Shown here one piece after another: positions 1-17,299 of a stretch of DNA of 64,000 bases. The stretch comes from Bdellovibrionales bacterium (GTDB lineage Bacteria > Bdellovibrionota > Bdellovibrionia > Bdellovibrionales > UBA1609). Below the pieces are notes generated by a model, which ran no database searches, was not told the DNA's origin, and saw nothing but the letters and a program-made list of their open reading frames with translations. Numbering within the stretch: position 1 is the first letter of the stretch; every line of letters starts with the position of its first letter. Both the position numbers and the translations under genes were made by a program. The stretch covers positions 2,607-66,606 of the forward strand of contig JAAOIH010000005.1 in assembly GCA_015163875.1 (NCBI GenBank), in the 5' to 3' direction.

Positions 1-3000
1 GATAATGACTAGGAAAACCAGGCAAAAAAGAAGCGTAACTTTCTTTAATAGATTTTAAAATATCTAGGGGGCTGTTTGATATAGGTGTAAAAGGATTTAA
101 TACATTGGTGGAATTTTCTGAACTATTAAATCCACTAATTACAGATCTCCACCCAGAGCCCTTGTCTTTTCTTAGAGAGTTTAAGAAAACTAAAATATCT
201 CTTGGCCCTCTCATTCTAATTAACCAAGGATGGTTATACAAAGCTCCCATATCTAGCTGATCTCCTGGAGTAAAATGTTGAGACACATAGTAGTATTTTT
301 CTAATAAACTTTTTTTAGCAGTTTGTAATTTTCCACATAATACAATTCCACTAGCTACCCCAGATAATCTTACTACTGTGCATTTTTTATAAGATAACAA
401 ATTAAAAATTACAGAGGATTCTTGTATAGATAATAAAACTTGAGATGTTAAAGTAAATCCATTTTCTGTAGATTTAGTAAATCCAATTTTATAAGGAACT
501 CCCCCTATGCCTAATATTTTTGACGGATCAACATCAAAGCGAGATGCAAAACTTTGCCTTAAACTAAAGTTTGTCCCGATATTTACATTAAAAGATTGTC
601 CTTCTTTATAAGAAGAACTTTCTGAATTTACTTTATAAATTTTATAAAAACTAGATATTTTAATGTCATTATTAGCCCAGTTAACTGTGTCACACAAAAA
701 AGAATTTCCACGCAATTGTTCTTTAGAAAAAGTTTTTAACTCTTCTCTTTTCTTTTTTAAATTTTCTTCGCTAAGCTTAGTATATTTATTAAGATCAAAA
801 TTTATTAATTGTTCGTGACTTAATCTGTCTACCATATATCTACATAAACGAGTCTTCATAAAACTTTTTTTAATTTTTCCTGTAGTTAAAATATCTTTAA
901 TATTTTTTACAGTAGCAGATTTTAAATCATTTAATAAATGTGTTAATTTATATCTAATTTTTCTAAATTTAGAAAAAGGTTTATTTAATTGATTTTTAAA
1001 ACTATTAAAATCCATTTGTTTAATTTCTGGATCTAAAGTTTGTTGCCCTAAATCTTGATTTTTAAATTTAACATTACAATTTTTTTTAACATTATTACCC
1101 TTAAAACAATTATCATTTTTTTCTAATACATTGTAATCAGAAATATAATCTAAACCATATAGTCTGGTATAAAGATTAAAACTAGAATTTTTTATATTTA
1201 TTTGTTCTTGATTTTTATGTAAAATTTTTTGCTGTTTTATTAAATCGTCTACATGAATATTTGCTAGTCTATTTTCACTTTCAAAATATTCGTGAGTTAA
1301 TTTAGATTCCCCTCCAGATGCTCTGATAGCTTCTACTTTATTTAATAAATTTCCTACAGACAAAGATGCCCTGTATGTTATGCCTGCACCAATAAGACAC
1401 TCTTGATTTCCACAATTATTTAACAGCATAGAATCTGTTGGACGCATATACGAACTATTGTCATATTGAACCAAAGTAACTGGCGCAATAAATGTACGCC
1501 TTTCAAGACCTGAATCTTTAATTAAAAATTTATTAGGATCTAAAATAGATTTTCCATTAATTTTCATAAAATTATTTTCTTCAACTTCTTCTATGTCTGC
1601 CTGAGAAAATGAAAACTCTTTTAATAAATCTTTTAAATCTTCTGGTAAATTAGCAGAATCTAAGCTATCAGAATTATTTTTTAAATCTGCAGCTCTCTTT
1701 TTAAGCAATCTAATTAGCCTGCTTAGTCGTCCTTGCTTATAGCCTACAAATTCCTGTAGATCTTTCTCTTTGTGTTCGTCTCTGAGCAACAGCTTAATTT
1801 TTTCTATTTCTTTTAAAGACTTTTCTGGATTTATAGTATTATTAAAAAACTTTTTTGCTTCATAAGAAACTTTTTGATCAAATATACGCGCTACTTGCAA
1901 TGCTTTTTCGTCAATAGCCTCTAGTTGAATAAGTAATTGTCCCCTGATTTTCATTAAAATAGGATTATTAATTTTTAATGCCACCGGCTCTATAATTAAT
2001 CCATTTTGAACTTTAATTAATTTTTGATAAGCAGTTATATACTCTATTGCTTTAGTTAATTTAGGTTTTACTGACTTAGATTGAAAATTATCTTGTATTC
2101 CTAACAATCTGGACTCTAAATTAGATTCATTAAATACAGAGGAATTAATTCCTGTAATATTTAAATTAAAAAATATTTTATTTTTTCTGGATAAATCTTT
2201 AATTTGTGATTGAAGTGCGTGTCTATTTTTTTGCGGAATTTTTTCAATAATGCTTTGCACTCTATCACTTGTTCCATCTTCATTTTCTTGTGTAGAAGAT
2301 ATAGTAATGCCAACAGCTGCTGGCTTTAAATAAGTTTTTTGAAAAGCCACCTTCATTAAATAAACCCCGTCTCTTAAAGATTTGTGGTGTTCATCTCTGG
2401 CATAAGATAGTGAATTATACCTTAGTGCAAATGGTTGCAAAACTAATAACAATCTTTTTCTAATATCTAAATTTAAATATTCGTCTATTTTATATTTAAA
2501 CCCTAAAGTATTATAAGAAAAGTTTTGTAAAAAAAATATAGATTTTAATCTTTTTTCATCAGCTATTTTTGTTCCTCCATATCTATTATCAAATCCAAAA
2601 TTCGTAATTTTTTCGTCCCACGGATTTATACTAAAAGATATTTCTTTATTAAATCTATTATATTTGTTTTTTATATTGATAAAGTTTTTAGATGTTATTG
2701 TATGATCAGGGTCATGATAAATATGAAATTTTTTAATAAAATATTTTTGTGGTTTATAAACTTTATGAAAGACTGTTCCGCTAACAGGCAAGCAGCCTTC
2801 TCTGTTTGTATAAAAACCTGTATTTTTTATAAGTTTAGATTCATAAGTAATAAAAAAATGTTCATTAACAACTGGTGCATCTGTTAAAGTATGCTTAAGA
2901 CAAAACTCAGTTCTAAACCTAACAGTTCTAGATATTGCTGTTTCTCCTGGTAAAATAGATTGATGCTTTGGTATTGCCTCTAAAATTCTAAATGGCCTTA

Positions 3001-4141
3001 TCCCCTCTAAATATCTTTTACTTTTTAATGTTTTAATATTGCTAGAAAGTTTTAAAAATTCTGAATAAGAAAACTTTTCTTTTAATTTAGATAAAGCTTC
3101 ATTAGAGTTTTCTTCTAAAATTAATGACGAGCTTCCTAATAATTTTCTATAAGAGCCAAGAGAATACAAGGCATCAAATGTAGACAGACTAACATTTTCT
3201 GGAATTAAGCGAACAGCTATTGCAAAATTACCCCTAAGAGCCTTGTGACTAAAAACTCCTTTATAAGAAATAATACCTCTATTTTGTGCAGTAAATTTAA
3301 CAAACAAAGGTTTGCTAGAGTGAAATAAAATAGCATGCTCTTTACTACTTTTACCCATATTTGTAGCTATTAATGAAACAAAAGCTCTAACTTTTCCTGA
3401 TTTTATTTTATATAAAGTTTTTTCTCCATAAGCGTCTTTTAACTTAGCTAATAAATCCATTTCTAATCTTACTTCTAAATCAAGCTTGTTATTATATTCT
3501 TTAATTTGAGAAATAAAAACTTTAGCATTAGCTATGTCTAATGGATAATGCTTTTTAATGCTTTTTTCAAAACCAAGTTTAGATTTACTAACTTGCTCTT
3601 TTCCAAAAGATAATAAATTTACAGGCAGTCTGTCTTTTTTATCTAAATGTACAAAACTTGGATAATTAGATCTAAAAATTGCCCATGGATTAATTGCAAT
3701 CTCTACAGGATAAAATCCTTGATGCAATCCCCTTCCAATAATTTCTCTTTTTAAAACTAAATAAGATGGGTTATTAGAAAAAAAGTTAAAAGCAACATCT
3801 TCGTGCCACTCAAGCCAACCGCTTGCTTTTGTAATTTCTTTAATTATTGTTCCGTCTTCTTTTTTTATATAAAATTCATGACCAATAATTGTTCTAGCAT
3901 CTTTTTGCGAAATAACTTTAACTCTAAATTTATAGCGCAAGCTATGTGGAATTTTCCATATACCTTTGTTTAAAATAGGAACTGCAGAGCTGTTGCTTAC
4001 CTCTGCAACTCTAAATGTTGCTTTAATATATTTTCGGCCAGCAAGCCCATTAAGTATAGTTTCATTTTTTTTAGAAGGCCCCCAACAAGACACAGAAAAA
4101 ACTAAAATAATAAAAAGAAAACTTTTTTTAAAAGACATCAT
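1..4141 (-). CDS. Very large (>=1380 aa) putative lipoprotein, hypothetical; 3' end lies beyond the window start
   Basis: Absent from the ORF track, consistent with no stop inside the window. Manual translation from ATG 4141 (ATGA overlap with the upstream stop) gives MMSFKKSFLFIILVFSVSC-WGPSKK, a lipobox. Spot checks at 2-720 in the same frame are open (YYYVSQHFTPGDQLDMGALYNHPWLIRMRG). The middle was not read codon by codon. Confidence 0.85.
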   Translation of the reverse strand, partial: MMSFKKSFLFIILVFSVSCWGPSKKNETILNGLAGRKYIKATFRVAEVSNSSAVPILNKGIWKIPHSLRYKFRVKVISQKDARTIIGHEFYIKKEDGTIIKEITKASGWLEWHEDVAFNFFSNNPSYLVLKREIIGRGLHQGFYPVEIAINPWAIFRSNYPSFVHLDKKDRLPVNLLSFGKEQVSKSKLGFEKSIKKHYPLDIANAKVFISQIKEYNNKLDLEVRLEMDLLAKLKDAYGEKTLYKIKSGKVRAFVSLIATNMGKSSKEHAILFHSSKPLFVKFTAQNRGIISYKGVFSHKALRGNFAIAVRLIPENVSLSTFDALYSLGSYRKLLGSSSLILEENSNEALSKLKEKFSYSEFLKLSSNIKTLKSKRYLEGIRPFRILEAIPKHQSILPGETAISRTVRFRTEFCLKHTLTDAPVVNEHFFITYESKLIKNTGFYTNREGCLPVSGTVFHKVYKPQKYFIKKFHIYHDPDHTITSKNFINIKNKYNRFNKEISFSINPWDEKITNFGFDNRYGGTKIADEKRLKSIFFLQNFSYNTLGFKYKIDEYLNLDIRKRLLLVLQPFALRYNSLSYARDEHHKSLRDGVYLMKVAFQKTYLKPAAVGITISSTQENEDGTSDRVQSIIEKIPQKNRHALQSQIKDLSRKNKIFFNLNITGINSSVFNESNLESRLLGIQDNFQSKSVKPKLTKAIEYITAYQKLIKVQNGLIIEPVALKINNPILMKIRGQLLIQLEAIDEKALQVARIFDQKVSYEAKKFFNNTINPEKSLKEIEKIKLLLRDEHKEKDLQEFVGYKQGRLSRLIRLLKKRAADLKNNSDSLDSANLPEDLKDLLKEFSFSQADIEEVEENNFMKINGKSILDPNKFLIKDSGLERRTFIAPVTLVQYDNSSYMRPTDSMLLNNCGNQECLIGAGITYRASLSVGNLLNKVEAIRASGGESKLTHEYFESENRLANIHVDDLIKQQKILHKNQEQINIKNSSFNLYTRLYGLDYISDYNVLEKNDNCFKGNNVKKNCNVKFKNQDLGQQTLDPEIKQMDFNSFKNQLNKPFSKFRKIRYKLTHLLNDLKSATVKNIKDILTTGKIKKSFMKTRLCRYMVDRLSHEQLINFDLNKYTKLSEENLKKKREELKTFSKEQLRGNSFLCDTVNWANNDIKISSFYKIYKVNSESSSYKEGQSFNVNIGTNFSLRQSFASRFDVDPSKILGIGGVPYKIGFTKSTENGFTLTSQVLLSIQESSVIFNLLSYKKCTVVRLSGVASGIVLCGKLQTAKKSLLEKYYYVSQHFTPGDQLDMGALYNHPWLIRMRGPRDILVFLNSLRKDKGSGWRSVISGFNSSENSTNVLNPFTPISNSPLDILKSIKESYASFLPGFPSHY

Positions 4142-5283
4142 ATTTTAGACTCCAAACCCAAAGACACTGACTGTAGTTTTTCTTGAAAAGCATCTATATT
4201 AATTACACTAGATTGAATATACTTTAATCCTATTTTGCTAAAGTTATTTATTTTCCATGACAAAGATACCGAAAAACCCTCTCTGTTATTATTTCCGTAA
4301 GCTGCACTATTATAATATGATATAGTGGCATCAGGCTCAACAAAGAAGTTTTCAAACACTAGTGATAGGTCTTGAGAAAACAAAGAAATTTTATCAAAAT
4401 ATAATTTTAAAAATCTAGCATTAGCAACGCTTTTGTCTGCTGCATAATTAAAAAATAAATAAGACTCTAGTCCAGCTCCAAAAAGTGGATAATATAAATT
4501 TATACCTGATCCAACAATTTTAAAATCAAAATCAAAACTACTGTTACTAGCCGCATCTCCCCTAGTGCTATTTCCAAGAAGTCCACTTTGAAATGCTACA
4601 ATAGATGGTAAATTAAAATATTGAGTATAAAATAAATTATATTTTAAGTTCCATTGTTTTTTTTTATAACCTATATCCCAATCTATATCCCATTGAGACA
4701 TAAAAAAATAAGGAAGTTTTTCATTATTTAATCTATAACTATCGTTACTATCTGATGGAGGTGTGCTTTGTTCTAAATTCCAATTTACAGATATATTTTT
4801 TATATTTAATATATGCCATGATTGTCTAAAACCAATAAATGAACTAGAAGAGCTAATAAGCAAATTTTTATTCCAAAAAGATTCTGATAAAATTCCTGCC
4901 TCAATAAATAAATTTTTAGTTGGAATGCCTATTAGTTTTGCACTTCTTAAAGAGTAAACTCCAGAATCATTGCTTCCAAAAATATGTTGTTGCAAACGCT
5001 TTTTAGAAGCTTTTAAATCAACTGATGCCTGAAAAAGTAAATTAGGTAGTAATTCTTTTTCCCAATTAATTTTTACATTAAGCAACACTCCCAAAGAATC
5101 ATTTAATCCTTCTTTCCACCTCCAAGAAGAAAGCCCCCACTCATAATTTAAATTAGAAGATTTAAGAAATCTAGGTTTATAATTTTTAGAATTTGAATTA
5201 AATTTTTTAGCCTCTAAATTAAAACCAAAGCCTAAAACAAACATCAAAATAGAAAAATGCACAAAAATAATATTTTTTAACAT
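4138..5283 (-). CDS. Putative outer-membrane beta-barrel protein
   Basis: The ORF track starts at 5409, but ATG 5283 gives a clean signal peptide (MLKNIIFVHFSILMFVLGFGFNLEA-K). It has alternating aromatic/hydrophobic strands and a beta-signal-like C-terminus (SVSLGLESKI). Confidence 0.7.
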   Translation of the reverse strand: MLKNIIFVHFSILMFVLGFGFNLEAKKFNSNSKNYKPRFLKSSNLNYEWGLSSWRWKEGLNDSLGVLLNVKINWEKELLPNLLFQASVDLKASKKRLQQHIFGSNDSGVYSLRSAKLIGIPTKNLFIEAGILSESFWNKNLLISSSSSFIGFRQSWHILNIKNISVNWNLEQSTPPSDSNDSYRLNNEKLPYFFMSQWDIDWDIGYKKKQWNLKYNLFYTQYFNLPSIVAFQSGLLGNSTRGDAASNSSFDFDFKIVGSGINLYYPLFGAGLESYLFFNYAADKSVANARFLKLYFDKISLFSQDLSLVFENFFVEPDATISYYNSAAYGNNNREGFSVSLSWKINNFSKIGLKYIQSSVINIDAFQEKLQSVSLGLESKI

Positions 5284-5361
5284 ACAAATACTACGCTTTT
5301 TTAATAACATTAAAGCTAATCTGTTTAAAGCTTGTAAGTTATAAAAATACCTACAAATTTC

Positions 5362-5409
5362 AAACTGGTCTACAATAATGGTCATAAACTGGTCTACAAT
5401 AATGGTCAC
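5362..5409. repeat. 24-bp tandem direct repeat (2 copies) with an inverted third copy at 5554-5580
   Basis: AAACTGGTCTACAATAATGGTCAT / AAACTGGTCTACAATAATGGTCAC. Bases 5360-5386 match the reverse complement of 5554-5580 at 23/27 positions. Confidence 0.9.
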
Positions 5410-5554: not shown

Positions 5555-6889
5555 ATGACCACTAAAGTAGACCAGCTTGATGTTTTTATTGTTTTTGGGG
5601 AGGTATTCCATGGGGGGTATATTCAGGGGCTTTTGGCTCAGGCAAAAAAAAATTCTGCCTCTATTATTTACAGCACTATGGGAAGGCGAGATTCTGATCA
5701 AAAATTAAGACCCCTTAATAAAGAAGAATTGTTAAAAAAAAACAAAGAACTAAATTTGTCTAACAATGACTTGCTAATAAATATTCCACTAGAGGCGGGT
5801 TTTGATTTAGAGATTTATCAAGAGCAAACACTTGTTGATTGCATTAATAAATATGGGTTAAAAAATTGGGAAAATTTTGTAATAGATGATGATTTTTTAC
5901 TTACTGTTAAAAAAGAAGCTAGCATTAAATTTAAAAAACAAATTAAAAAATTTTTAATTCAAGTAAGTTCTCACATAAAAGAAAATACAAAAAATATTTA
6001 TTTCATACATACCATGGCTGGTGGAATACCAAGGTCTAAGCTAGTAATGGCTGTTTTAAATAGGGTTTTAAAAGGTCGCGGAAAAAGATTTTATTCATCA
6101 GAGAAATTTTATAACACTGGTCTAGGAAAGGTCTCTTTAGAAAGTTTTAAATCTGTAACTGCAGAAAGTTTTAAAAATTTAATTACAGAAACAAAAGATT
6201 TAAGAAGCTTGTGGGCTAAAAAAAATATCAATGTATCTTATTCAGCTTTTGGCTATAGAGGTAACTCTATTTTAATTAAAAATCAATATCAATGGACAGC
6301 TTATGCTCCATACATACAAGGTTGGGCTAAGTTAGAGCTAGAAGATATTGCACAAAAAGCTAAAGATAATAATATTAATACTAATGTTTTTAATTGCCCA
6401 GAAGTTCTTACAAGATCGAGTCAAACTTTTTCTGGTATAGAAGTTTTTTTATATCCTTTTTTAAATTCTTTAAATTCTGCAAGCTCTGATTTAATTTTAA
6501 AAAAAATTGGTGATCTTAAAATTATACAAGATTTATTAAATCAACTAGGTTACAAGTCTTTAAAACAAGATAGTTTTATTAATTATTTTAATAAGGATTT
6601 TTCTTTTGTAAAATTAAAACAATTAACTGATAATTTTTTTACTGATTCAAGTCTTGAGAATCAACTTAATCATGACCTATGGCCTCAACATAATAACTCT
6701 AAGCAAATGGACTTAATGATAGAAGCAACTTTAGAGCTTAATAAATATATAATCCCTGAAACAAAATTACTTTTTCATACACAATTAAGCTTAATTTTAA
6801 TTTATCTAGCTGGAAATCAAATTTATAAACAATTAGGATCTAAAAAAACTGTGCAAAACTTAACTCATGAAAGTTTGTTGCATGAATAA
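5555..6889 (+). CDS. fabMG: Enoyl-ACP reductase, FabMG family
   Basis: Family motifs recognised: VFGEVFHGGY, STMGRR, INIPLEAGFD, HTMAGGIP, YSAFGY, YAPYIQGWAKLELE, FNCPE, WPQHN. Confidence 0.75.
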   Translation: MTTKVDQLDVFIVFGEVFHGGYIQGLLAQAKKNSASIIYSTMGRRDSDQKLRPLNKEELLKKNKELNLSNNDLLINIPLEAGFDLEIYQEQTLVDCINKYGLKNWENFVIDDDFLLTVKKEASIKFKKQIKKFLIQVSSHIKENTKNIYFIHTMAGGIPRSKLVMAVLNRVLKGRGKRFYSSEKFYNTGLGKVSLESFKSVTAESFKNLITETKDLRSLWAKKNINVSYSAFGYRGNSILIKNQYQWTAYAPYIQGWAKLELEDIAQKAKDNNINTNVFNCPEVLTRSSQTFSGIEVFLYPFLNSLNSASSDLILKKIGDLKIIQDLLNQLGYKSLKQDSFINYFNKDFSFVKLKQLTDNFFTDSSLENQLNHDLWPQHNNSKQMDLMIEATLELNKYIIPETKLLFHTQLSLILIYLAGNQIYKQLGSKKTVQNLTHESLLHE

Positions 6890-6914: not shown

Positions 6915-9182
6915 TTATTTTGGAGAAATAATTTTTGACAACACTCTTGTTAAAGACAGAGGGTCTGCTTGCAACACTGGAGGGTTAAATAAAAAATTTA
7001 TTTTATCAAATGCACTGGCGTCTAAAGGCATTGTTAAAACAAAATGAAAAGCTTGGTTGATAGAGTATTGATCTGTATCGCTTCCGTCGGCTTGTAATAA
7101 CTTAATAACAAGTCCTTTAAATATTAAAATAGCTTGTTTTAATTCATTTTTATCTAAAATTCCAGAATTATCTTTATCGTATCTTAGCATTACAGATTCT
7201 ATAAAATATAACAAAGTGTAAGTTAAAAATAATTTAGATTCTGTTAGCTCTTGATTACTATTAAAAATATTTTTATAAATAAGAGAAAAAAATTCTTTTT
7301 TAGAATCTGCAGAAGAATTATTAAAATAATTATCTACTATAAATAATCCAGACTTTTTTTCTATTTTTTTAAAAAAGAAATCTACGCAATTTGTGCTGCA
7401 TTCTTTATTTAAAATAATTATTTCTTGCTTAGCTTTTTTAATAGCAGAATGTGCAATGCTAAACAGTTCAAATACTTCTTTAAACGACACATCTTCAGAA
7501 ATTATTTGTTCAATATTAGTTACAGCAGGATTTCCAGAATAAACATCTGGGCAATAATACATGCAATCTATTGCTTTGGTTTCAACTAAATACCCTTTAG
7601 AGCTATAAGAAAAAAATTGAGAAAGAACTTGAACTAAACTAGAAATATTATCTATACTTGCTGGAATATAAATACCCAAAGATCTTAATAAAACAAAGGC
7701 ATCCTTGGTTAAGCTTTTAACTTCGCTAGATTTTAATTTTATATTAGATATATCAGATAAAGATTTATTTTTTATTACAGTGTTTGCATAGCTAAAACTA
7801 TAAGTATAAAAAATTTTTTCTACTAAGCTTAATAAGTTATTATGTACAAACAAATTATAAATTTTTGTTTTGTCTGCATTTGTAGCCTTGTAAATATTTG
7901 CAACTCCAGGACTTTTAAAAACATAAACGCTGTTTTTTGCAATAGACAATAATCTATCATAGTACCTAATATCTTGCGCAGATTTTTGTTTTCCAAGTTT
8001 ATCATAAACTTTTTTATTAACACTTCCAGATAAAATAACTTGAGCTCGTGCCCATTTATTTACTGTTTTTTTAATTTCTTTTAGTATTTTTATATTTAAA
8101 CCTGTATTGCTTGATTTATTTTTTAATGTAGTAAAATATTTACCAATATATATAGATAAAAATTCTTCATCTGCCCTAAAAGGAAGAATGGACCTGTCAT
8201 GAAATACTTCAAATATAGGAACTATCTTATCATAGGTAATAACATTGTTAGGCTGGACTTCTATTAAAGAGCTAACACTTTTAAAAACATTATTATACCA
8301 CAAAATAAAATAATCTAATTTTTTTACATTAAATAAACTTTGCTCATGCATAGTTAATCTATACTGTATAAATAAAGAGTATGTGTCTGAGAAAAAATTT
8401 AACATACTCTTCCACTGTTTTGGTGAGAATTGCTCATTAGTGTTTTTAGACAAAAGCAAGGTTTGCATAGAAGAAAAAAGCTTATTTTGTTTTTGTATAA
8501 ATTTTGAAAATTTAGTTTGAGCACCGTTATTAAAAAATAAACCTGTGTGCAATGTTAGCTCTTGAAAATTAGAATAAGAGTAAAAAGTTTTAGGGGTATT
8601 TTTACTAAATTGTTTTAAAACATTAACTAAAGTTGTTTTAGCTTGATCTAATCTAACTTCTATTTCGCTCCAAGAATATTTAGACAAAATATTTTTTACT
8701 GACATGTCTTGTGTAAATATATTGTAAAACTCCATATGTTTTAAAAGTTCTAACAAAGAAGGTGTCATTTTTTTTAATTCTTGTGAAATTTGTTGTAACT
8801 CTGATTTAGTAATCATGTCACTTCCACCAACTAACCATTTTTTAAATAATATAACCTCTTTCTTTAACTCTTTAGTCAAAGCAGGTGGATTTGTTAATAA
8901 TTTAGAAATATAATCTGCTATTTCTTCTACGGTAAATTGATCTTTATCTTTACCATTTACCGAATATGCAAACATTTCTATTGAATTAGAAAAGCATATC
9001 CAAAAATTTTTAAAATCTTGAGGAGAAATGTTAGCATCAAAGTAATTTATTACATTTTTATAAAAAGATTTTAAACACTTACTAGACTCAGATGGTTTTA
9101 CATATGTCTTTGCAGTTTCTGTAACTTTTAAATTACAAGAAACAGAACTAATAATAAAAATAAGAGAAAATATTAATTTCAT
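6915..9182 (-). CDS. Large alpha-helical lipoprotein with C-terminal EF-hand
   Basis: Lipobox SVS-C16 and a canonical EF-hand loop DKDNSGILDKNE. Paralogous to 10693-12990 (shared N-terminal C..F.K....YF...S......FWIC...SI). Confidence 0.75.
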   Translation of the reverse strand: MKLIFSLIFIISSVSCNLKVTETAKTYVKPSESSKCLKSFYKNVINYFDANISPQDFKNFWICFSNSIEMFAYSVNGKDKDQFTVEEIADYISKLLTNPPALTKELKKEVILFKKWLVGGSDMITKSELQQISQELKKMTPSLLELLKHMEFYNIFTQDMSVKNILSKYSWSEIEVRLDQAKTTLVNVLKQFSKNTPKTFYSYSNFQELTLHTGLFFNNGAQTKFSKFIQKQNKLFSSMQTLLLSKNTNEQFSPKQWKSMLNFFSDTYSLFIQYRLTMHEQSLFNVKKLDYFILWYNNVFKSVSSLIEVQPNNVITYDKIVPIFEVFHDRSILPFRADEEFLSIYIGKYFTTLKNKSSNTGLNIKILKEIKKTVNKWARAQVILSGSVNKKVYDKLGKQKSAQDIRYYDRLLSIAKNSVYVFKSPGVANIYKATNADKTKIYNLFVHNNLLSLVEKIFYTYSFSYANTVIKNKSLSDISNIKLKSSEVKSLTKDAFVLLRSLGIYIPASIDNISSLVQVLSQFFSYSSKGYLVETKAIDCMYYCPDVYSGNPAVTNIEQIISEDVSFKEVFELFSIAHSAIKKAKQEIIILNKECSTNCVDFFFKKIEKKSGLFIVDNYFNNSSADSKKEFFSLIYKNIFNSNQELTESKLFLTYTLLYFIESVMLRYDKDNSGILDKNELKQAILIFKGLVIKLLQADGSDTDQYSINQAFHFVLTMPLDASAFDKINFLFNPPVLQADPLSLTRVLSKIISPK

Positions 9183-9294
9183 AGGCTTGCCTTCTTATCG
9201 GGTGATTATACACTATACAGATTGGTAAAATCTTATATATTTTGTTATTTTTGTAATAATTGTAAGCATTTTAATATTATTATCACAATATGGG

Positions 9295-10668
9295 TTAAAG
9301 CTGATATTTCCATCCAATATAAATAAAGTCATTAGATACATTACTTGCAAATACACCTCCAACTTGCTCTGAAAATGGGTGTCCCAAAATGTCAAAACCT
9401 AGTGTTAAAATGTGGTTTTTTAGTGTTTTTGTATACTTAATAGACAATATGTCTACCTTAGAGCTTAAAATTTGAGTATATTTTACAAAAAATTCATCAG
9501 AAGCAAATAATATATTTTTTTGATTGGCTTTGACAAAAAATGCCGTTTTGTAAGGGTATCCATAAATGTCGTCTATACCCCTTAAATCCTTTTCAGCAGA
9601 AAATACAGATTGCTGAATAATGTTAAATTTTGTATAAATGCCACCAAAATTAATACCTCTAAATAAATTTTTATATTTAAATCCAAATGCTAGGATATTT
9701 TTATTAACTAAGGCAGAGTACTTAGCGTTATTTAAAAAAGAAAGCTTTTTAGGTTTATCAATTGCAACTGAAATATATTCAGAAAAGTTTTTTTGTTTTA
9801 ATTGCATTTCAAAAAAAGCAATATGATGCATTACTGATTTAATTTTTACTAGAACATCTAATGGCTTTGTTGTATCGCCAGCTTTGTCAGAAATATTAAC
9901 ATAAACATAAGGGTCTGAGTAAGGCTTATAAAAATAAGATGCAGTTAAATACATGGTTTGATTATTTTTTCTAGAGCCAAAATTAAATATTTTCTTTTTT
10001 GCCCATAATCCTAAACTCCATTTTTGTAAAAAATTATAAATATCAATATCTTGTAAACTATAGTTAATTTTTTTTCCAACTGCTGTGTCATAGTAAATAA
10101 AAGAGTTCCATCTGTTATGTACTTTAATGTTTCCATTTTTTAAATCAACTGCCCCTGATTGATGTGGTAAAAAAATAGGGCTAGCAAATAAGCGAAATAA
10201 AAAATTAGTAGTTACTTGTTTATAAAAAATACCAAACAAGCCTTGTTTTTCTGGTCGCAAAGGATTTGCATTAAAATAAGGCTCTAATAAACCTAACTTC
10301 CAATTTTCTTCTAACAAAGACCATTTTATTTTTTTTCTTCCAAATACTAAAGTTTTATTTTTAAATTTAGTAGATTTTAAATTATATAAAAAAAATAACT
10401 CTGGAATAATTGGATGACTGTCCAAAAGTTCTGAAGAAATTAAAGCCCCTATGTCTGCATAAAAATAATTAGATTTATTATTTTTTTTTGAAGAATAAAT
10501 GATTCTTGGCTTTATGTTTACAATAGTTTGGGATAAATTAGTAAATTGAACTGGTGACAAATAATAATTAAATTTTGTATCAAGTGAGGCCTTAAAAAAT
10601 GCACTTGCATTAAGCACAAAAAAGAATGTCGTTGCAAAAAATGTAGAGTAATAAGTATATTTTTTCAT
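9295..10668 (-). CDS. Putative outer-membrane beta-barrel protein
   Basis: Signal peptide ending LNASA, amphipathic strands and C-terminal FIYIGWKYQL. Paralog of 12980-14329. Confidence 0.7.
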   Translation of the reverse strand: MKKYTYYSTFFATTFFFVLNASAFFKASLDTKFNYYLSPVQFTNLSQTIVNIKPRIIYSSKKNNKSNYFYADIGALISSELLDSHPIIPELFFLYNLKSTKFKNKTLVFGRKKIKWSLLEENWKLGLLEPYFNANPLRPEKQGLFGIFYKQVTTNFLFRLFASPIFLPHQSGAVDLKNGNIKVHNRWNSFIYYDTAVGKKINYSLQDIDIYNFLQKWSLGLWAKKKIFNFGSRKNNQTMYLTASYFYKPYSDPYVYVNISDKAGDTTKPLDVLVKIKSVMHHIAFFEMQLKQKNFSEYISVAIDKPKKLSFLNNAKYSALVNKNILAFGFKYKNLFRGINFGGIYTKFNIIQQSVFSAEKDLRGIDDIYGYPYKTAFFVKANQKNILFASDEFFVKYTQILSSKVDILSIKYTKTLKNHILTLGFDILGHPFSEQVGGVFASNVSNDFIYIGWKYQL

Positions 10669-10692
10669 TTAATAATTTCCATTTTTATAATT

Positions 10693-12990
10693 TTAAAGAG
10701 AAAAAGACCTTAATGTTTTAAAAACTTTTAGAATTTGCAAAAAAGATGCGTTATATGTTTTGTCTGGATTTAAAGACCAATTAAGAAGGCGAAGTTGAGA
10801 TAAAATATCAGATTCAGGGTTAGGAAATTGTCCATTTTTTAATAAATAAGTATATAAATTTTTTAATTCCAAAGTGTCGTCTACTGGAAAAACTTCTTGT
10901 AAAGGTTTTTGCACTAAAGGAAAAAAGTATAAGCTTTCAAAGTAGGACAAATGCCAATCTTTATTAAGATCAAACTTATTAAAAATTGTGACAATATATT
11001 GTAATAACATTCCTGTTTTAAATAGATTTTTTTTATTAAAATACTCACCGCTTATATGTCCTGCTGCAATAGCTGTTATATCAAGGCTGCTTTTAGCTTT
11101 GTTTAAAAATGTTAATTTATATATTTGTTTAGGTAAAAATTTAAAATAAGATTTTTGATTTTTTAAAAATTGATCATATACACAAGAAGTTTTATAAAAA
11201 ATATCAAAATCATTTTTATAAATCTTGCAATGTTTATCTACTAAAATAGACCATTTGTTTTTTATATTTAATCCGCTAAAAATATAATGCAAATACTCTA
11301 AAGCCTCTTGCCTGTCTGTAACTAAATCAGGCTTGCTACTAGGCATAAATAAATTTGACTCTCTGTAAATAGTTTTTGGGACTGTATCACTTTTTGGATC
11401 TAATATTTTAGCAAAAATAAAAACTGATTTAAACTCATTAAAAGCTAATGTTATTTTTTTAAGATTCATGTTATTTTTTTTATCTGCATATAAAGAAAAC
11501 ATGATATCAACTAGCAAGCTTTCTATATTTAGCCTGGCTAAGTTGTTAAATAAAAAGACTTGATTGCGCAAATCAACAAACAATAGCCTTCCTTGATTGT
11601 CTATTTTTTGTTTTCCAATTTTTGTATTTGATAATTTAGTAAAAGATCTTTTGATTAAAGGTAAATTTAACTCCCCTATAATTTTATTTTTATCTTTTAC
11701 AAATAATACATCTGTAGAAAATAAAGATTTATTGCTAAGCCCTGCAAATTGTAAATTTAAATTTTGAATATAAATCCATTTTAAAAACAAGACTTTTAAA
11801 GATAGAATGTGTTGTCTAGAAAAAAACTTTAAATCTAATTTTAGATTGTCTTTTTTATACATATTGTTAGAAAGTAATTTATTTACACTAAGCCATGCAG
11901 AATCTAAAAATTTTAAAGTAATAACAAACTTGCTTGGTTTAATTTTTTGATAGTTTAATATTAAGGCTTTAATATCTTTTACTAAATAGCCTTTCGACTT
12001 AGTTTTAAGATTTGCTTGCTGAGTTTTAAGATTTGCTTGCTGAGTTTTAAGATTTGCTTGCTTAGCTGTTTGCTTAGTTACAGACTTTAAAAATAATTGC
12101 TCTACAAATTTAAAATATTTAAATTGAGCATTTAAATTATCAAAATTTGGACTTTTGTTATTTAAATAAAATAATTGAAAACCTCTGTAAGCAGAATAAA
12201 AAGATGCCAGTGGTGATATTAAGCTTGTCCATTCATTTTTTGTAATTTTTTTTGTTTTGTTTTTAGTTACAAGGGATTTTGCAGAAAAAACAAATTCTGC
12301 AATTTGTTTATGTTTTTTAGAAAATAATTTTAAAAATTTATTTAAAGAGGCGTAATCATAAGATGATTTACTAGTGATAAATATTTTTTCAATACTTTTA
12401 AAAGATTTTTGCAAAACCTTTGTTGCTTTTTCATACTCTAAATAAGACACAGAATTATCATTAAAATTAGAATTGGCATTGGCATTGGCATTGGCATTGG
12501 CATTGGCAAAAAATAAAGTTTTTCTATGTGGATATAAATCAAGTGATATTGTTTTTAATTTTTGAATACTTGATTTAAAAAAATTGATATCTTGCTTAGA
12601 TACAAAGTTTTTATTTTTAAAAAAAGATAAATCTTTTAATAAAGAAAAAATAGAGAATATTTTGCTTGCAGAATTTTCGTTTTTTAAAACTTTATATAAA
12701 ATACTTTTTATATCTAAATAAAGATATTTATTTTTTTCTTTGGGTTTTAAAACAGATGTAACCAAGTTTATGCTGTTATCTATACATATCCAAAATTTAT
12801 TAACTTCTTTTAAGCTCATTTTTTTGTTAAAATATTTATTAATAGTTTTAGAAAAATTAGCCCAACAAATATTTTGAACAGATACTAAGTTATTAATTTT
12901 TTTTATTGAATTATCAACTGGAGAAAGCTTTTTGCTACAGCTTAAAGAAGTTGAAATAATAAAAATAAATACCAATTTTTTAAAATTCAT
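10693..12990 (-). CDS. Large alpha-helical lipoprotein with C-terminal EF-hand-like loop
   Basis: Lipobox SLS-C18 and loop DLNKDWHLSYFE. Contains in-frame (AN)6 and QQANLKT repeats. Confidence 0.75.
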   Translation of the reverse strand: MNFKKLVFIFIISTSLSCSKKLSPVDNSIKKINNLVSVQNICWANFSKTINKYFNKKMSLKEVNKFWICIDNSINLVTSVLKPKEKNKYLYLDIKSILYKVLKNENSASKIFSIFSLLKDLSFFKNKNFVSKQDINFFKSSIQKLKTISLDLYPHRKTLFFANANANANANANSNFNDNSVSYLEYEKATKVLQKSFKSIEKIFITSKSSYDYASLNKFLKLFSKKHKQIAEFVFSAKSLVTKNKTKKITKNEWTSLISPLASFYSAYRGFQLFYLNNKSPNFDNLNAQFKYFKFVEQLFLKSVTKQTAKQANLKTQQANLKTQQANLKTKSKGYLVKDIKALILNYQKIKPSKFVITLKFLDSAWLSVNKLLSNNMYKKDNLKLDLKFFSRQHILSLKVLFLKWIYIQNLNLQFAGLSNKSLFSTDVLFVKDKNKIIGELNLPLIKRSFTKLSNTKIGKQKIDNQGRLLFVDLRNQVFLFNNLARLNIESLLVDIMFSLYADKKNNMNLKKITLAFNEFKSVFIFAKILDPKSDTVPKTIYRESNLFMPSSKPDLVTDRQEALEYLHYIFSGLNIKNKWSILVDKHCKIYKNDFDIFYKTSCVYDQFLKNQKSYFKFLPKQIYKLTFLNKAKSSLDITAIAAGHISGEYFNKKNLFKTGMLLQYIVTIFNKFDLNKDWHLSYFESLYFFPLVQKPLQEVFPVDDTLELKNLYTYLLKNGQFPNPESDILSQLRLLNWSLNPDKTYNASFLQILKVFKTLRSFSL
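12001..12063. repeat. 21-bp in-frame tandem repeat x3 (QQANLKT)
   Basis: AGTTTTAAGATTTGCTTGCTG repeated three times; the last base of copy 3 differs. Confidence 0.95.
12472..12507. repeat. Hexanucleotide microsatellite (ATTGGC)6 encoding (AN)6
   Basis: Six perfect ATTGGC copies. Confidence 0.95.
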
Positions 12991-14329
12991 ATTTTACCCC
13001 TACTTGAATAAAATTATTATTTGAAAATTTATGTAAAAAAAAGTTAGAATTATATTCTGCTTTTTTGCTTTTATAAAAATTAGTCACATTAAGTAATAAT
13101 CTAACCTGTGGTTTTATCTTCCATAATAAGTTAGATGACAACATAGATGCTTTTTGTTTAAAATCATATGTTACTTGTAATTTGTATTCAGAACCTAAAA
13201 TATTAAAAAAATTATTTACTATCACGCCTGCTGTAACTGCATCTAGATAATTATATATATAAGAAAATAAACTTTCTTGTAGCTCTATGTACTCGTTGTA
13301 AGATTTTTTTTTATATCCTGATACTTTTTGATAGGATGTAAAGATACTATGTCCTTGATTATTTTTTATAGAATAATAAATATTATATAAAAAAACATTA
13401 GAGAGTTTATCAAAAAAATAATCTTTTTCTACTTTCTTTTTTTTGTAAGCTCTGTATGAAGATGATAATAGTAAGCTCCAAAATTCTTTTTTAACTCCAG
13501 TTTCTATTGTTGCTAAAGATTCTGTAATTGCATAAGGCTTAATATTTACATTTAAGGCGTCTGCACTTAGAGCTGGCTTTAACCCTATAAAAATAAAGTT
13601 ACTTGGTTTATAAGAAAATGCAGAGTTAATAAAAACTTTAGAATCTGCTTTGTATTTAATTTGAAATGCTATGCTGTTTTTAGCTATTAGTTTTATAGTA
13701 GAAAATTTATCTACTTTATATTGAATTGGTAAATTATTAAATTGCACAGGAACAGAATGCAGCCACGGAGTAAAAGATCTAATTAAATTAGATTTAATAC
13801 TTATGTTAGATGAATATCTTGGTAAAAATACAGGGCTAAAAAAAACATAATAAGACATTTTGTTATATTGTTTTTGTAAATGTAAACCTAATAGGCCCAT
13901 TGATACAGGCTGTGATGGGTTTTGATAAAATTCTGCTTGCCATAAATTATTTTTCCATACTGAATCAGCCCAGCTCCATAAATGTTTTTTTTGTCCTATA
14001 AACCATGGTTTATAATCTAAAAATAATTCTTCAGATTTTACATAAAACACTGATTCATAAGCGCTATAAAATAATTCTTGTTTAAAATTTAGTTTTTTAT
14101 ATTTTCCAACCCCTCCAAAGCCAATTTTACCAATTTTATTTGAGTACTTAGAATCAATATTCCAAAAATAATTATTTTGCAGGTAAATAAAAAATGTTGA
14201 ATCTGTTTTTGAGCTAAGCAGTGATGGCCTGTTAATATTATTAACTATTATTTTGGCGTTACTGTTTGTGGGTGTAAAAAATAGAAAAAAATAGAAAATA
14301 CAAAATAAAATAGAATAGTTATTATGCAT
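12980..14329 (-). CDS. Putative outer-membrane beta-barrel protein
   Basis: Signal peptide ending SNA and C-terminal beta-signal FIQVGVKYEF. Its motif GQKKHLWS...W...F..NP..P...GLLG...FFSPVFLP is shared with 9295-10668. Confidence 0.75.
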   Translation of the reverse strand: MHNNYSILFCIFYFFLFFTPTNSNAKIIVNNINRPSLLSSKTDSTFFIYLQNNYFWNIDSKYSNKIGKIGFGGVGKYKKLNFKQELFYSAYESVFYVKSEELFLDYKPWFIGQKKHLWSWADSVWKNNLWQAEFYQNPSQPVSMGLLGLHLQKQYNKMSYYVFFSPVFLPRYSSNISIKSNLIRSFTPWLHSVPVQFNNLPIQYKVDKFSTIKLIAKNSIAFQIKYKADSKVFINSAFSYKPSNFIFIGLKPALSADALNVNIKPYAITESLATIETGVKKEFWSLLLSSSYRAYKKKKVEKDYFFDKLSNVFLYNIYYSIKNNQGHSIFTSYQKVSGYKKKSYNEYIELQESLFSYIYNYLDAVTAGVIVNNFFNILGSEYKLQVTYDFKQKASMLSSNLLWKIKPQVRLLLNVTNFYKSKKAEYNSNFFLHKFSNNNFIQVGVKYEF

Positions 14330-14378
14330 GTATATCTTTTAAAAGCATGGGCCTTTAAAGTCAAAAAAATTGTAAATA

Positions 14379-15446
14379 CTAAAGGGTTTTTTGTTTTGTA
14401 CGAATTGAAAAAAGTAAAAAAGTTAAGCTAATAGCGATAAAAGCAATGCTAAGCCATTGTCCCCTGGTTAATCCTAGCCATTGAAACCCAACCCCTAAAT
14501 CTGGCATTCTGTAAGCCTCGCCTATAATCCTTGCTATTGAGTAAAATAGTCCAAAACAGCCTGTGATAAATCCTACAGGGCGTGGTTTTTTCCAAATAAA
14601 AAAGCATAAAATAAACACTAATAATCCCTCTAAAAGAGCTTGAAAAATTTGGGAGGGGTACCTGACAGTTAAAATGCTTAAATGTTGTATCACCAATGGG
14701 TTAGAGGATTCTGATAATGTAATAATTTTATTAATCCACAGGCTTATTTTGTATTGTGCAGATGATGAAATAGATGCAGATTGGCTAGTTAATTCTGCAA
14801 CCAAAGAATTCCAAATTTCTGCAGTTATTTTTTGGCCAGGAATTCCAATATTATCATTTGACATTTTTTCAACTAGTGGCGCTAAAAGATTTAATTTGCT
14901 AGGCATTTCTTGCAGCCATCTATAAAGTTCTTGTGGAAATCTAACTCCAAAATAGCAAGCCTCTACACATGCTCTTCCATAAAGTTCTCCATTAATAAAA
15001 TTAGCTAAGCGTCCAAAAAATAAACCAACTCCTGCACTTAGTGATGCTAAATCTACTAAGTGTAAAAAGTTTAATTGTTTTTTTTTGGCATAAAAATAAC
15101 ATGCAGCAATTACTCCAAGCAGTCCTCCGTGACTTGCCATTCCGCCTTTGTGTAATTCTAAAATACCCCAAAAAGGAAAAGATGGGCTCCATTGTAAAAA
15201 TAAATGAGGTGCATAAAATAAACAGTAGCCTAGCCTGCCTCCAATTAAAATACCAAAAGCTGCAAAATAAACAAAATCAGATACATCTTTAATTTTTAGT
15301 AAAGATTCTGAATTTTTAATTTTCCACTTAATAATAAAAGTAGCAAAAATAAAAGCCGCAATATATGACAGGCCATACCATCGCAATCCAATCCCTTGTG
15401 AAACTTCTATAAAAAATGGACTTAGGCTATGAGTATAAACAGACAT
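14379..15446 (-). CDS. lgt: Prolipoprotein diacylglyceryl transferase
   Basis: LRWYGL, GGRLGY, GGMASHGG, GRLANFINGELYGR, YPSQ, R...E.YR.PD, GQWLS. Confidence 0.97.
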   Translation of the reverse strand: MSVYTHSLSPFFIEVSQGIGLRWYGLSYIAAFIFATFIIKWKIKNSESLLKIKDVSDFVYFAAFGILIGGRLGYCLFYAPHLFLQWSPSFPFWGILELHKGGMASHGGLLGVIAACYFYAKKKQLNFLHLVDLASLSAGVGLFFGRLANFINGELYGRACVEACYFGVRFPQELYRWLQEMPSKLNLLAPLVEKMSNDNIGIPGQKITAEIWNSLVAELTSQSASISSSAQYKISLWINKIITLSESSNPLVIQHLSILTVRYPSQIFQALLEGLLVFILCFFIWKKPRPVGFITGCFGLFYSIARIIGEAYRMPDLGVGFQWLGLTRGQWLSIAFIAISLTFLLFSIRTKQKTL

Positions 15447-15889: not shown

Positions 15890-17299
15890 ATGTATAAATT
15901 TTTATTTTCTTTTTGTTTATTTTTGACATTTAATGTTAGTGCTAAAATTATTTTGCCAAAGCTTTTACCTGGTGAAAAGCTACCTGCAGATCAATTTATA
16001 AAGCTTTATAAAATAATTAACCCAACTGTGGTTAATATTTCTAGCAAACTTAATAAAAAAACTTCTTATTACAATTTAAAAAACCCTTTGTTGCCATTTA
16101 TATTGCCTTACAACAATATTCCAAGAAGGGCAGAACCTTTGTCTTCTTTAGGTACCGGTTTTATTATCAGCGCTGATGGTTTAATTATTACAAACGCACA
16201 TGTTATATCTAATGCAAATATTATTAATGTTAAAGTTGCAGGTGATAATAAAGATTATGTTGCAAAAATTATAGGTCAAGATAAAAGCAGCGACATAGCT
16301 TTAATTAAAATAACCACTAAATATAAATTATCTTTTGCATCTTTGGGAAGCAGCCAATCTTTGCAAGTTGGACAATGGGTTGCTGCTTTTGGAAATCCTT
16401 ATGGCTATTCTCACACAATGACTAAGGGAATTATTTCTGCAAAAGGTCGCGAAATAGACGAGCTAAATCGTTTTCCTTTTTTACAAACAGATGCAAGTAT
16501 TAATAAAGGAAACTCTGGAGGACCGTTAGTAAATATGCAAGGAAAGGTTATAGGCGTAAACTCAGCCATTGACCCTAGAGCACAGGGAATTGGATTTGCA
16601 ATTCCTATAGATAATGTAAAATCTATTTTAAAAGAATTAAAAGAATATGGATTTGTAAAGCGAGGTTTTTTAGGCATATATATGCTAGATTTAACGCCAA
16701 GACTTGCAAGAAAAATAGGCAGTAATAAAAAAAGAGGAGCTTTAATTGTTGAAGTGTTAAAAAATAGCCCTTCAGAAAAAGGTGGACTAAAAGTTTATGA
16801 TATTATAACAAAATTTAATAAAAAAAATATTTTATCTTCAAAACATTTGTCAAAAGCAATCGGAAATAGTGCAAGCAATGCAAAAATTATATTAGGTGTT
16901 TATAGAAAAAATAAATTTTTACAACTAGAGGTTACTTTAAAACCTAATTCTCAAGATTTAAGGCGTAGCCCTTTAAATAAAAAAACATCTTCACAAAAAA
17001 TAAAAATTTACCAAGCCCCTTACAAGCTAGGTTTTAAATTAGTAAATGCAAATAAAAAATCTGCCAATCAATTGCGCATTCCCTATTTAGCAAGAGTAAA
17101 CAGACCTGTAGTTGTTGGAATATATAAACACTCCACTGCACATTTAGCAGGTCTTGCTTATTTAGATGTAATTTTAGATATTAATTTAAAAAAAGTAAAA
17201 ACTGTAAAACAGGTTTTTAATTCTTTGCGAAGAGGCACTAATTATGTTCGTATTTTAAGAAACAAACAGGTTTATTTGCTTCAAATGAGAGGAAGATAA
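15890..17299 (+). CDS. degP: Do/DegP (HtrA) family serine endoprotease with two PDZ domains
   Basis: LGTGFII, TNAHVI, DIALIK, QTDASINKGNSGGPL; C-terminal PDZ segments (RGFLGI). Confidence 0.92.
   Translation: MYKFLFSFCLFLTFNVSAKIILPKLLPGEKLPADQFIKLYKIINPTVVNISSKLNKKTSYYNLKNPLLPFILPYNNIPRRAEPLSSLGTGFIISADGLIITNAHVISNANIINVKVAGDNKDYVAKIIGQDKSSDIALIKITTKYKLSFASLGSSQSLQVGQWVAAFGNPYGYSHTMTKGIISAKGREIDELNRFPFLQTDASINKGNSGGPLVNMQGKVIGVNSAIDPRAQGIGFAIPIDNVKSILKELKEYGFVKRGFLGIYMLDLTPRLARKIGSNKKRGALIVEVLKNSPSEKGGLKVYDIITKFNKKNILSSKHLSKAIGNSASNAKIILGVYRKNKFLQLEVTLKPNSQDLRRSPLNKKTSSQKIKIYQAPYKLGFKLVNANKKSANQLRIPYLARVNRPVVVGIYKHSTAHLAGLAYLDVILDINLKKVKTVKQVFNSLRRGTNYVRILRNKQVYLLQMRGR

Follow-up and report, generated by a model that had tools for sequence, protein, structure and literature searches.

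A duplicated gene pair for an outer-membrane barrel and a predicted EF-hand lipoprotein, recurrent in Bdellovibrionota

Introduction

Assemblies of an outer-membrane beta-barrel with a lipoprotein, such as SusCD, LptDE and Slam with its clients, are central to the way diderm bacteria feed and build their surface, and none has so far been described for the predatory Bdellovibrio group, of which the outer membrane is otherwise poorly understood. The subject of this study is a locus of that general kind in a Bdellovibrionales bacterium (assembly GCA_015163875.1), found in a 64,000-nucleotide stretch of contig JAAOIH010000005.1 (positions 2,607 to 66,606 of the forward strand), here called the window. 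Behind lgt, the gene for prolipoprotein diacylglyceryl transferase, it encodes two barrels, A and B, each together with a large lipoprotein of its own.

The layout is like that of SusC/SusD in Bacteroidota, with the barrel first and the lipoprotein second, a large all-helical lipoprotein, cognate partners and paralogous pairs in one genome. The differences are that the barrel here has no TonB box, plug or TonB_dep_Rec match, nor any room for a plug before the barrel, and that the lipoprotein appears to be EF-hand-based and not TPR-like, with a SusD-family Pfam match in none of 32 members. LptE and RcsF, which are small, also sit one to one on or in a specific barrel (LptD and OmpA), but a lipoprotein of 700-1700 aa is too big to sit inside a barrel, and our Pfam and NCBIfam scans found no sequence match to these families. 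The partners of Slam are beta-rich proteins, unlike the helical EF-hand lipoprotein found here. Slam itself, which according to PMC7857515 consists of two TPRs and a predicted 14-stranded barrel, resembles our locus in that its gene adjoins that of the lipoprotein substrate (TbpB, LbpB, HpuA) and in that paralogous barrels have different clients; it differs from the barrel studied here, which has no TPR and no Pfam match at all and is much larger, with a strand count in the model far above 14.

As single proteins, the barrels are most readily compared with the OprD/Occ channels (Pseudomonas OpdQ and OccD2, Acinetobacter OccAB1-4), ChiP and AlgE, like which they are stand-alone, of similar size and without plug or periplasmic domain, but from which they differ in sequence (8-11% identity, no PF03573 match). 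AlgE is partnered by AlgK, a helical-repeat outer-membrane lipoprotein; to our knowledge, channels of the OprD/Occ class have no dedicated lipoprotein partner. The lipoprotein shares with the penta-EF-hand proteins (calpain domain IV, sorcin, ALG-2) a C-terminal part of about 170 residues that superposes on them, a profile match to ALG-2 and NCS-1 and a canonical 12-residue loop. The known members are, however, eukaryotic and cytosolic with several active loops, and here a single loop stands at the end of a predicted secreted and lipidated bacterial protein of more than 700 aa. Within the same organismal group the major outer-membrane protein PopA (Bd0427) is porin-like and predator-specific, but it belongs to a different family, being a 353-aa, 16-stranded, helix-plugged pentamer for which the accessible portion of PMC12228718 describes no lipoprotein partner.

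In the literature, searched as full text and without the supplementary tables of Bdellovibrio proteomic, transcriptomic and transposon studies, no paper was found that deals with this family or that describes a barrel with an EF-hand lipoprotein as its partner. Both components lie, by sequence, outside the curated families, while the kind of system, an outer-membrane barrel with a cognate lipoprotein, is already known.

Conservation of the gene pair

Judged from their genes, the barrel and the lipoprotein almost certainly work together, since a fixed overlap of stop and start, obligate co-occurrence and fidelity between the partners after duplication are, when combined, the signature of proteins with joint synthesis and joint action.

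Five genes of the window follow each other on its minus strand: lgt, then barrel A (449 aa, 12980-14329), lipoprotein A (765 aa, 10693-12990), barrel B (457 aa, 9295-10668) and lipoprotein B (755 aa, 6915-9182), in the order and with the strand and lengths that a sequence-only reading of the window had given and that the listing of open reading frames (ORFs) confirms. Barrel A has a signal peptide and a C-terminal beta-signal (...KYEF), and the end of its gene overlaps the start of lipoprotein A by 11 nt (TATGAATTTTAA, 12980-12990, minus strand), an overlap that the same reading had pointed out and that makes a putative junction for translational coupling. Barrel B ends in ...WKYQL. The two pairs are distant paralogues, the barrels being 24% identical over 205 residues (E 2e-11) and the lipoproteins 27% over their first 160 residues (E 8e-10). 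The G+C content is about 25% in this region and about 26% in the window. The assembly (1.29 Mb in 50 contigs, 93% complete) contains only two copies each of barrel and lipoprotein, and since the same pair recurs in related genomes, the pairing is not due to chance.

We surveyed 41 related genomes, 20 related loci, 18 loci from distant families and 201 genomes across the phylum. With single proteins as queries, barrel A was found in 33 and lipoprotein B in 29 of the 41 related genomes, on the same contigs. At the related loci, all 31 barrel genes adjoin an ORF of 692-1682 aa, five of these being placed by position only, and at the distant loci all 19 adjoin a lipoprotein confirmed by the hidden Markov model (HMM) of its family, which lies downstream on the same strand in 17 cases and head to head with the barrel in the other two. 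The complete order of barrel A, lipoprotein A, barrel B and lipoprotein B is found in nine genomes, and yet another has two pairs back to back. Among the less common layouts, the head-to-head arrangement was seen in two genomes of family f21 (L051 in G048 and L052 in G158), one locus (L053 in G116) has a barrel followed by two lipoprotein paralogues, and in another (L044 in G029) the lipoprotein comes before the barrel.

Across the phylum the barrel HMM, built from 36 sequences, matches 110 of the 201 genomes at E<=1e-5, and the lipoprotein HMM, built from 32 sequences, matches 110 of the same 201, which leaves 91 (about 45%) with no match for each family. The barrel is present in 12/12 genomes of the window's family, in 20/20 of the Bdellovibrio family (f10) and in 32/35, 9/9 and 9/9 of three further families, and it is scarce or absent in three others (0/9, 0/14 and 1/32). 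The family tallies of the lipoprotein agree with these save for one genome with a barrel match only (G083) and one with a weak lipoprotein match only (G096), a nearly perfect pattern among related genomes that should not be taken for a statistical test. The HMM survey consisted of genomes of Bdellovibrionota, and the module has so far been found only in this phylum.

Throughout the phylum, 29 of 52 pairs have an identical 11-nt overlap of the form TATGnnnTTYTAA, in which the Tyr codon of the Y-x-F beta-signal at the end of the barrel supplies the ATG of the lipoprotein. Most of the remaining overlaps are longer than 11 nt, probably since the ORF caller takes the earliest in-frame start.

Duplication and co-divergence

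Trees were made of 52 barrels and of the 52 lipoproteins that neighbour them. Among the lipoproteins, those of type A from the window's family, with lipoprotein A among them, form a clade of 12 rows (support 98 in the Shimodaira-Hasegawa-like approximate likelihood ratio test, SH-aLRT), which joins one of the two paralogues of the Bdellovibrio family (15 rows, 95), and those of type B fall with the second paralogue. Resolution is lower in the tree of the barrels, yet the same partners fall in the same groups, with barrel B in the B-type group; barrel A of the window has a long branch and stands apart from the main A clade. An A-type barrel is in every case accompanied by an A-type lipoprotein.

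The patristic distances of barrels and lipoproteins are correlated with a Spearman coefficient of 0.77, a value reached by none of 2000 label permutations. Swapping the partners within a genome, by which the species relationships are held fixed, lowers the correlation in 14 of the 15 genomes with two pairs, and the observed correlation is reached by 2 of 2000 random sets of swaps. The grouping in the trees, the correlation and the swap control thus indicate that the pair was duplicated as a unit before the window's family split from the Bdellovibrio family, and that the partners have been kept since; in the Bdellovibrio family the two pairs now lie 30-55 kb apart, and Bdellovibrio bacteriovorus has one pair of type A and one of type B (L048 and L049). 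Sets that have had separate partners since before the radiation of the families suggest that A and B have different specificities.

The sequence-only reading had assigned each barrel a cognate lipoprotein and had named a survey of neighbourhoods and a co-phylogeny among the ways to check it. Both agree with the claim: all 50 barrel genes examined in other genomes adjoin a lipoprotein-type ORF, and this strict adjacency is joined by the 11-nt overlap, the near-perfect co-occurrence and the mirrored trees. Its further proposal, that the pair had been duplicated as a unit next to lgt, holds for the unit but not for the place, for the duplication was not beside lgt and is older than the split from the Bdellovibrio family.

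The barrel

The AlphaFold2 model of the barrel, made from a 36-row alignment, has a predicted local distance difference test score (pLDDT) of 86.9 and a predicted TM-score (pTM) of 0.83, and is all-beta from residue 43 to the C-terminus. The roughly 40 residues before the first strand are mostly signal peptide, followed by a short disordered stretch. The top Foldseek matches are AlgE (rank 1, E 1.3e-8), ChiP and OprD/Occ, with E values around 1e-8 and TM around 0.5. Superpositions by VIA, which are independent of Foldseek, give the highest score to OpdQ (Z 21.7, root-mean-square deviation (rmsd) 3.5, 294 of 377 residues), followed by OccD2 and OccAB1-4 (Z 21.2-21.4), ChiP (20.8), AlgE (20.1), MOMP (19.2) and Wzi (18.0), and weaker scores to the classical 16-stranded porins (Z about 15) and to the TonB-dependent barrels and SusC (about 13-14; SusC BT1762 13.9). 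The best superpositions are thus on 18-stranded monomeric substrate channels, over 290-315 residues with an rmsd of 3.5-4.3 A and an identity of 8-11%.

By sequence the picture is another one. Barrels A and B have no Pfam match at E<=1 and no NCBIfam match, and the 36 family members have no Pfam match at E<=0.1, TPR, POTRA, Plug, TonB_dep_Rec and Alginate_exp included; a search of the whole genome for PF03573 (OprD) gave 0 matches, and the profile of the barrel family finds no sequence match among solved structures. We take the modelled barrel to belong to the structural class of large monomeric substrate channels, yet to form a family of its own, on the grounds of the low identity, the lack of a sequence match to solved structures and the empty PF03573 search. 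The sequence-only reading had itself stated that assignment of the barrels to a characterised porin family would speak against its proposal of an export or anchoring system, and this has come true by half, in that the fold is porin-like and of the OprD/Occ class while sequence places it in no such family. That reading had also seen no TPR, POTRA or TonB plug, and the Pfam scan of 36 barrels and 32 lipoproteins found none either.

Conservation is concentrated at residues ~100-260 and in the C-terminal signal. Behind the conserved G-R/Q-K-K...WS motif the modelled chain makes a long excursion that contains a short helix (residues ~115-145). By analogy with porins, this conserved block of loop and helix is probably a lining or constriction of the pore, or else a surface for docking. 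The motifs that had been read from the two barrels, G.KK..WS....W......F..NP..P...GL.G and F.SP.FLP, are both in the alignment, with the correction that the spacing after WS had been one residue short.

The relatives of the barrel are many and almost nameless. A word-based protein search with barrel A gave five close relatives, the nearest named one being a hypothetical protein of a metagenome-assembled genome of a 'Bdellovibrionaceae bacterium', and with the Bdellovibrio orthologue as query it gave 237 matches, of which the best 120 are all named 'hypothetical protein' except for two with the UniRef label 'Transposase', and contain no Pfam domain. The orthologues from a 3.77-Mb genome, complete and of the same order, have about 83% identity with proteins that bear the name Bdellovibrio bacteriovorus. 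An exhaustive search with the profile gives 1838 representative clusters at E<=1e-3 and 836 at 1e-30, and the best 150 of the 1838 are all single-domain proteins of 439-568 aa, with no fused form among them.

The lipoprotein

Both lipoproteins are predicted to be all-helical. They have a signal peptide that ends in a lipobox Cys (...TSLSC in A, ...SSVSC in B) and are predicted to be lipidated, lgt being present; many members of the family have a canonical L-[AS]-[GA]-C lipobox, and the two copies of the window a looser S-[LV]-S-C. The AlphaFold2 model of lipoprotein B (pLDDT 79.9, pTM 0.78) has about 37 helices, with short beta bridges recurring between helix pairs. The whole model gives nothing in Foldseek at E<=1e-3, and the ESM Atlas gives only EF-hand leads at 0.80, which is below the level of trust. 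SusD is not among the listed fold matches, but the 755-aa helical model was searched whole and a match of a single domain could be missed. A Pfam scan of 32 members finds no TPR, Sel1, SusD-family, peptidoglycan-binding or other envelope domain.

The C-terminal domain is, from model and profile, penta-EF-hand-like with a single conserved predicted Ca2+ loop. In a wide structural search, residues ~580-755 of lipoprotein B superpose on penta-EF-hand proteins over 131-168 residues with Z 6.6-7.5 (calpain-13 domain IV 7.5 over 155 residues, sorcin 7.3, an ALG-2 homologue 7.1, m-calpain 6.9, ALG-2 6.6), scores that lie in a range where helical models often match by arrangement alone. These modest scores agree with the sequence profile of the family, which among solved EF-hand proteins matches NCS-1 (E 1.3e-5), GCAP-2 and ALG-2, at E 1.3e-5 to 7e-5. 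The loop of lipoprotein B (DKDNSGILDKNE, residues 669-680, 7143-7178, minus strand) is canonical by sequence, with ligands at positions 1, 3, 5 and 12, and is flanked by helices at 648-668 and 678-698; that of lipoprotein A (DLNKDWHLSYFE, residues 674-685, 10936-10971, minus strand) has Trp at position 6, where Gly is usual. Of 52 homologues, 44 have a loop with the ligand spacing of EF-hands in the corresponding place; among the eight without it, one is truncated. Single proteins stay below the gathering score of Pfam: lipoprotein B matches EF-hand_6 at residues 661-685 with E 2.3e-4 and 21 bits against a cut-off of 25, lipoprotein A matches more weakly, and EF-hand_1 is matched in 11 of 32 members at E<=0.1 (best E 4.2e-4). 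The EF-hand-type loop noticed from the two sequences is thus sub-threshold in Pfam when they are taken singly and real at the level of the family, and the shared N-terminal block C..F.K....YF...S......FWIC...SI, noticed at the same time, is found in the 27%-identity alignment.

The lipobox Cys, C36/C63, C595/C599, E662, D669 and E680 (numbering of lipoprotein B) are each at least 90% conserved in the 32- and 52-row alignments. As a whole the lipoprotein varies more than the barrel, with a mean column identity of 10-15% against 21-23%, and its length ranges from 692 to 1682 aa across the homologues and is typically 700-1000 aa. The family has an internal repeat with a unit of about 115 aa, residues 32-150 aligning with 160-280 (hhalign probability 95.6%, E 1.2e-8, 100 columns). 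The idea that the whole lipoprotein might be a poly-EF-hand was borne out only in part: the N-terminal segment and the first middle segment are the repeat just mentioned, but the probabilities fall to 43% for M1 against M2, 35% for M3 against C and 1.5% for N against C.

Some details of single lipoproteins can be added. The very long ones of 1682 aa (L039 2948-7996, G027) and 1201 aa (L051 2554-6159, G048) keep the C-terminal EF loop, and an A-type lipoprotein of G004 (L032 7725-10405) is apparently split into a 142-aa N-terminal ORF and a 761-aa ORF, possibly by a frameshift or a sequencing error. Lipoprotein A of the window contains two perfect in-frame tandem repeats with 100% matching, one of 21 nt in 3.0 copies at 12001-12062 (QQANLKT three times) and one of 6 nt in 6.2 copies at 12472-12508 (an Asn-Ala run); its orthologue in the same genus is 30 aa shorter, and the repeat stretch is possibly a region of variable length. 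Many B-type lipoproteins have C-x-[LI]-x-[VLTM]-[GN]-[ED] directly after the lipidated Cys (CGLKVGEK, CSIQVGEK), a motif without which the A-type members are found and which could be a signal for threading, sorting or docking; the site in the window reads CNLKVTET (9110-9137, residues 16-24 of lipoprotein B).

Discussion

We propose, tentatively and with a little less than even confidence, that in each pair a substrate channel and an accessory lipoprotein stabilised by Ca2+ are translated together and form an obligate complex in the outer membrane. The two proteins would be made together in about equal amounts and would assemble into a stable complex, presumably with a stoichiometry of 1:1. 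The barrel would be a substrate-selective channel for transport that needs no energy, and the lipoprotein, on whichever face of the membrane it lies, would be its cap, substrate binder or gate, with the single conserved Ca2+ site serving a structural or regulatory purpose. Such a layout, with the barrel first, the helical lipoprotein second and cognate sets side by side, would work like SusC/SusD without the TonB plug and without the energy.

Several observations weigh against this proposal. Physical binding is inferred from gene context, and the side of the membrane on which the lipoprotein lies is likewise inferred. Mirrored trees reflect the shared descent of linked genes, from which contact does not follow. 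Pair B of the window has no overlap, its genes being separated by a gap of 112 nt, and the genes of the two distant loci mentioned above face each other head to head. DSSP counts about 22 strand segments in a model of which the best superpositions are on 18-stranded barrels, and the modest EF-hand Z scores have been noted. The genome further encodes a porin of the Porin_4 type, a single TonB-dependent receptor and several small barrels, so the barrels of the module are not needed as its sole channels, and no neighbouring gene hints at a substrate, the conserved ones being housekeeping genes (fabMG, ribonucleotide reductase, acetyl-CoA synthetase). A joint model of barrel B (25-457) and lipoprotein B (17-580, the EF-hand domain omitted) from paired 52-row alignments gave ipSAE 0.01 and 0.00 against a mark of 0.32, a result that was made without controls and says nothing for or against binding.

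Alternatively, the main task of the barrel could be to bring the lipoprotein of its pair through the outer membrane or to hold it there, either by acting as a Slam-like translocon or by letting the tether of the lipoprotein thread through it and stay, as RcsF does in OmpA/OmpC and LptE in LptD, so that an exposed, helical Ca2+-binding protein would be the functional part, for example in contact with prey or host. One barrel per lipoprotein, obligate linkage and co-divergence are the genomic pattern of Slam and its substrates described in PMC7857515, and a lipoprotein that evolves faster than its barrel, is far more variable in length, contains perfect in-frame repeats (lipoprotein A) and has in the B-type a motif right after the lipidated Cys that could be a threading or sorting signal, would fit exposure at the surface. 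The barrel, however, has about 40 residues before its first strand and no TPR or Slam-type Pfam match, its closest structures are diffusion channels, and it is most conserved in an internal block of loop that is typical of constrictions in channels. Surface lipoproteins can also take general routes, by LptDE (PMC12065857; bioRxiv 10.64898/2026.10.03.756453) and by BAM (PMC7857515), so a private exporter is not required. We regard this explanation, which is the dedicated lipoprotein export proposed by the sequence-only reading, as unlikely, and our results neither support nor exclude it. Quite unlikely in our opinion is an arrangement in which the lipoprotein hangs under the barrel from the inner leaflet, as a Ca2+-dependent scaffold or spacer in the envelope that tethers or organises the outer membrane and for which the barrel is mainly an anchor. 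It is established, and stated in PMC7857515, that lipoproteins delivered by Lol face the periplasm by default; a long modular helical build with repeats would suit a spacer, the two conserved Cys pairs would fit an oxidising compartment, and retention in reduced genomes is what one expects of envelope housekeeping. But the Pfam scan found no peptidoglycan-binding or other envelope domain, an anchor leaves the conserved pore-loop block and the large channel-class barrel unexplained, and a module for which about 45% of the phylum genomes sampled give no match is not a universal part of the envelope.

It is very unlikely, in our judgement, that there is no physical complex and that a porin and an unrelated Ca2+-binding lipoprotein are kept together for co-expression only. 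Nothing here shows contact, pair B and several other pairs are gapped and do not overlap, and two loci are head to head, all of which speaks for such a reading, but only one genome in each direction is discordant among 201, each barrel type has kept its own lipoprotein type after the duplication, even where the pairs lie far apart, and an identical overlap of frames in more than half of the pairs exceeds what co-regulation alone usually preserves. Export of a polysaccharide or other polymer through the barrel, with the helical lipoprotein docking to it in the periplasm as in AlgE/AlgK, has AlgE among the best structural matches and the helical-repeat nature of AlgK in its favour. We nevertheless find it highly improbable, as no member has an Alginate_exp, TPR or Sel1 Pfam match, as the OprD/Occ channels match the barrel equally well or better, as the order with the barrel first is unlike that of algK-algE, and as no synthase, polymerase or glycosyltransferase is consistently linked, the one kdo-transferase-like gene lying beyond fabMG at one locus.

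A bolder combination, which we think doubtful, would be a self-contained surface device private to Bdellovibrio-type predators in which each OprD-like barrel displays, and works with, its own giant Ca2+-binding lipoprotein, as a TonB-independent unit for capture and channelling or for contact with prey or host, with A and B serving different targets. If it were true, the device would have no counterpart among the known systems for lipoprotein export or nutrient uptake.

The importance of the module to these organisms is marked by its presence in about half of the genomes sampled in the phylum, by the same frame overlap in deep lineages and by the retention of both sets in a genome reduced to 1.29 Mb, in a family in which every sampled genome has the module. 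Two sets that co-diverge in one cell are, moreover, a natural experiment in partner specificity, and should the lipoprotein be surface-exposed, the module would bear on how phyla without Slam place lipoproteins on their surface.

Neighbouring genes and genome context

The lgt gene (14379-15446, minus strand) lies 49 nt upstream of barrel A, and its identity, already seen from the sequence, is certain from the matches to Pfam LGT (E 1.7e-54) and TIGR00544 (E 6.9e-56). A link between it and the module had been supposed, but the direct adjacency is confined to the window's genome and one of the same genus (G001), which is 1 of the 20 related loci, and the supposition is not supported. In two genomes (G012, G008) lgt is about 4.5 kb upstream, beyond ribonucleotide reductase genes on the opposite strand, and in another (G024) it is about 5 kb away; elsewhere the genes upstream of the pair are those for ribonucleotide reductase and acetyl-CoA synthetase. 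From this comparison of loci, lgt is a neighbour and not part of the conserved module, and the best reading is that the loss of genes from a shrinking genome brought the two side by side. The window's genome is indeed strongly reduced, the family being mostly of 2.4-4.2 Mb with several other members of 1.2-1.6 Mb, which suggests that the organism depends on a host or on prey and is still losing genes.

On the other side, fabMG (enoyl-ACP reductase, 5555-6889, plus strand, Pfam E 7e-112) often lies next to lipoprotein B, and convergent with it, in the family of the window, and in one genus of the Bdellovibrio family it stands between the two pairs; no functional link is evident. Divergent from lgt there is a gene for a DegP/HtrA-type periplasmic serine protease (15890-17299, plus strand; Trypsin_2 E 2e-35, PDZ_2 E 2.2e-17), which is next to lgt in the same-genus genome as well. 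A scan for promoters and terminators counted 64 sites of the promoter type, where 59.7 were expected, and 3 of the terminator type, where 2.5 were expected, and is uninformative in DNA so rich in A and T.

The window contains yet another module of barrel and lipoprotein, at 2-5409 on the minus strand. Its barrel-like ORF (4138-5409) is of 423 aa, or shorter if an internal start is used, and shares 4 nt with the beginning of the gene for a 1384-aa lipoprotein with the signal ...VFSVSC and no Pfam match, of which the full gene is L066 2593-6747. We considered this ORF as a member of the barrel family studied here and ruled it out (BLASTP E 0.15-0.6, hhalign probability 0.9%). The family of the 423-aa ORF recurs beyond fabMG in related genomes, there too with a large overlapping ORF behind it, and the arrangement of a barrel with a giant lipoprotein after it may be widespread as a theme among these bacteria.

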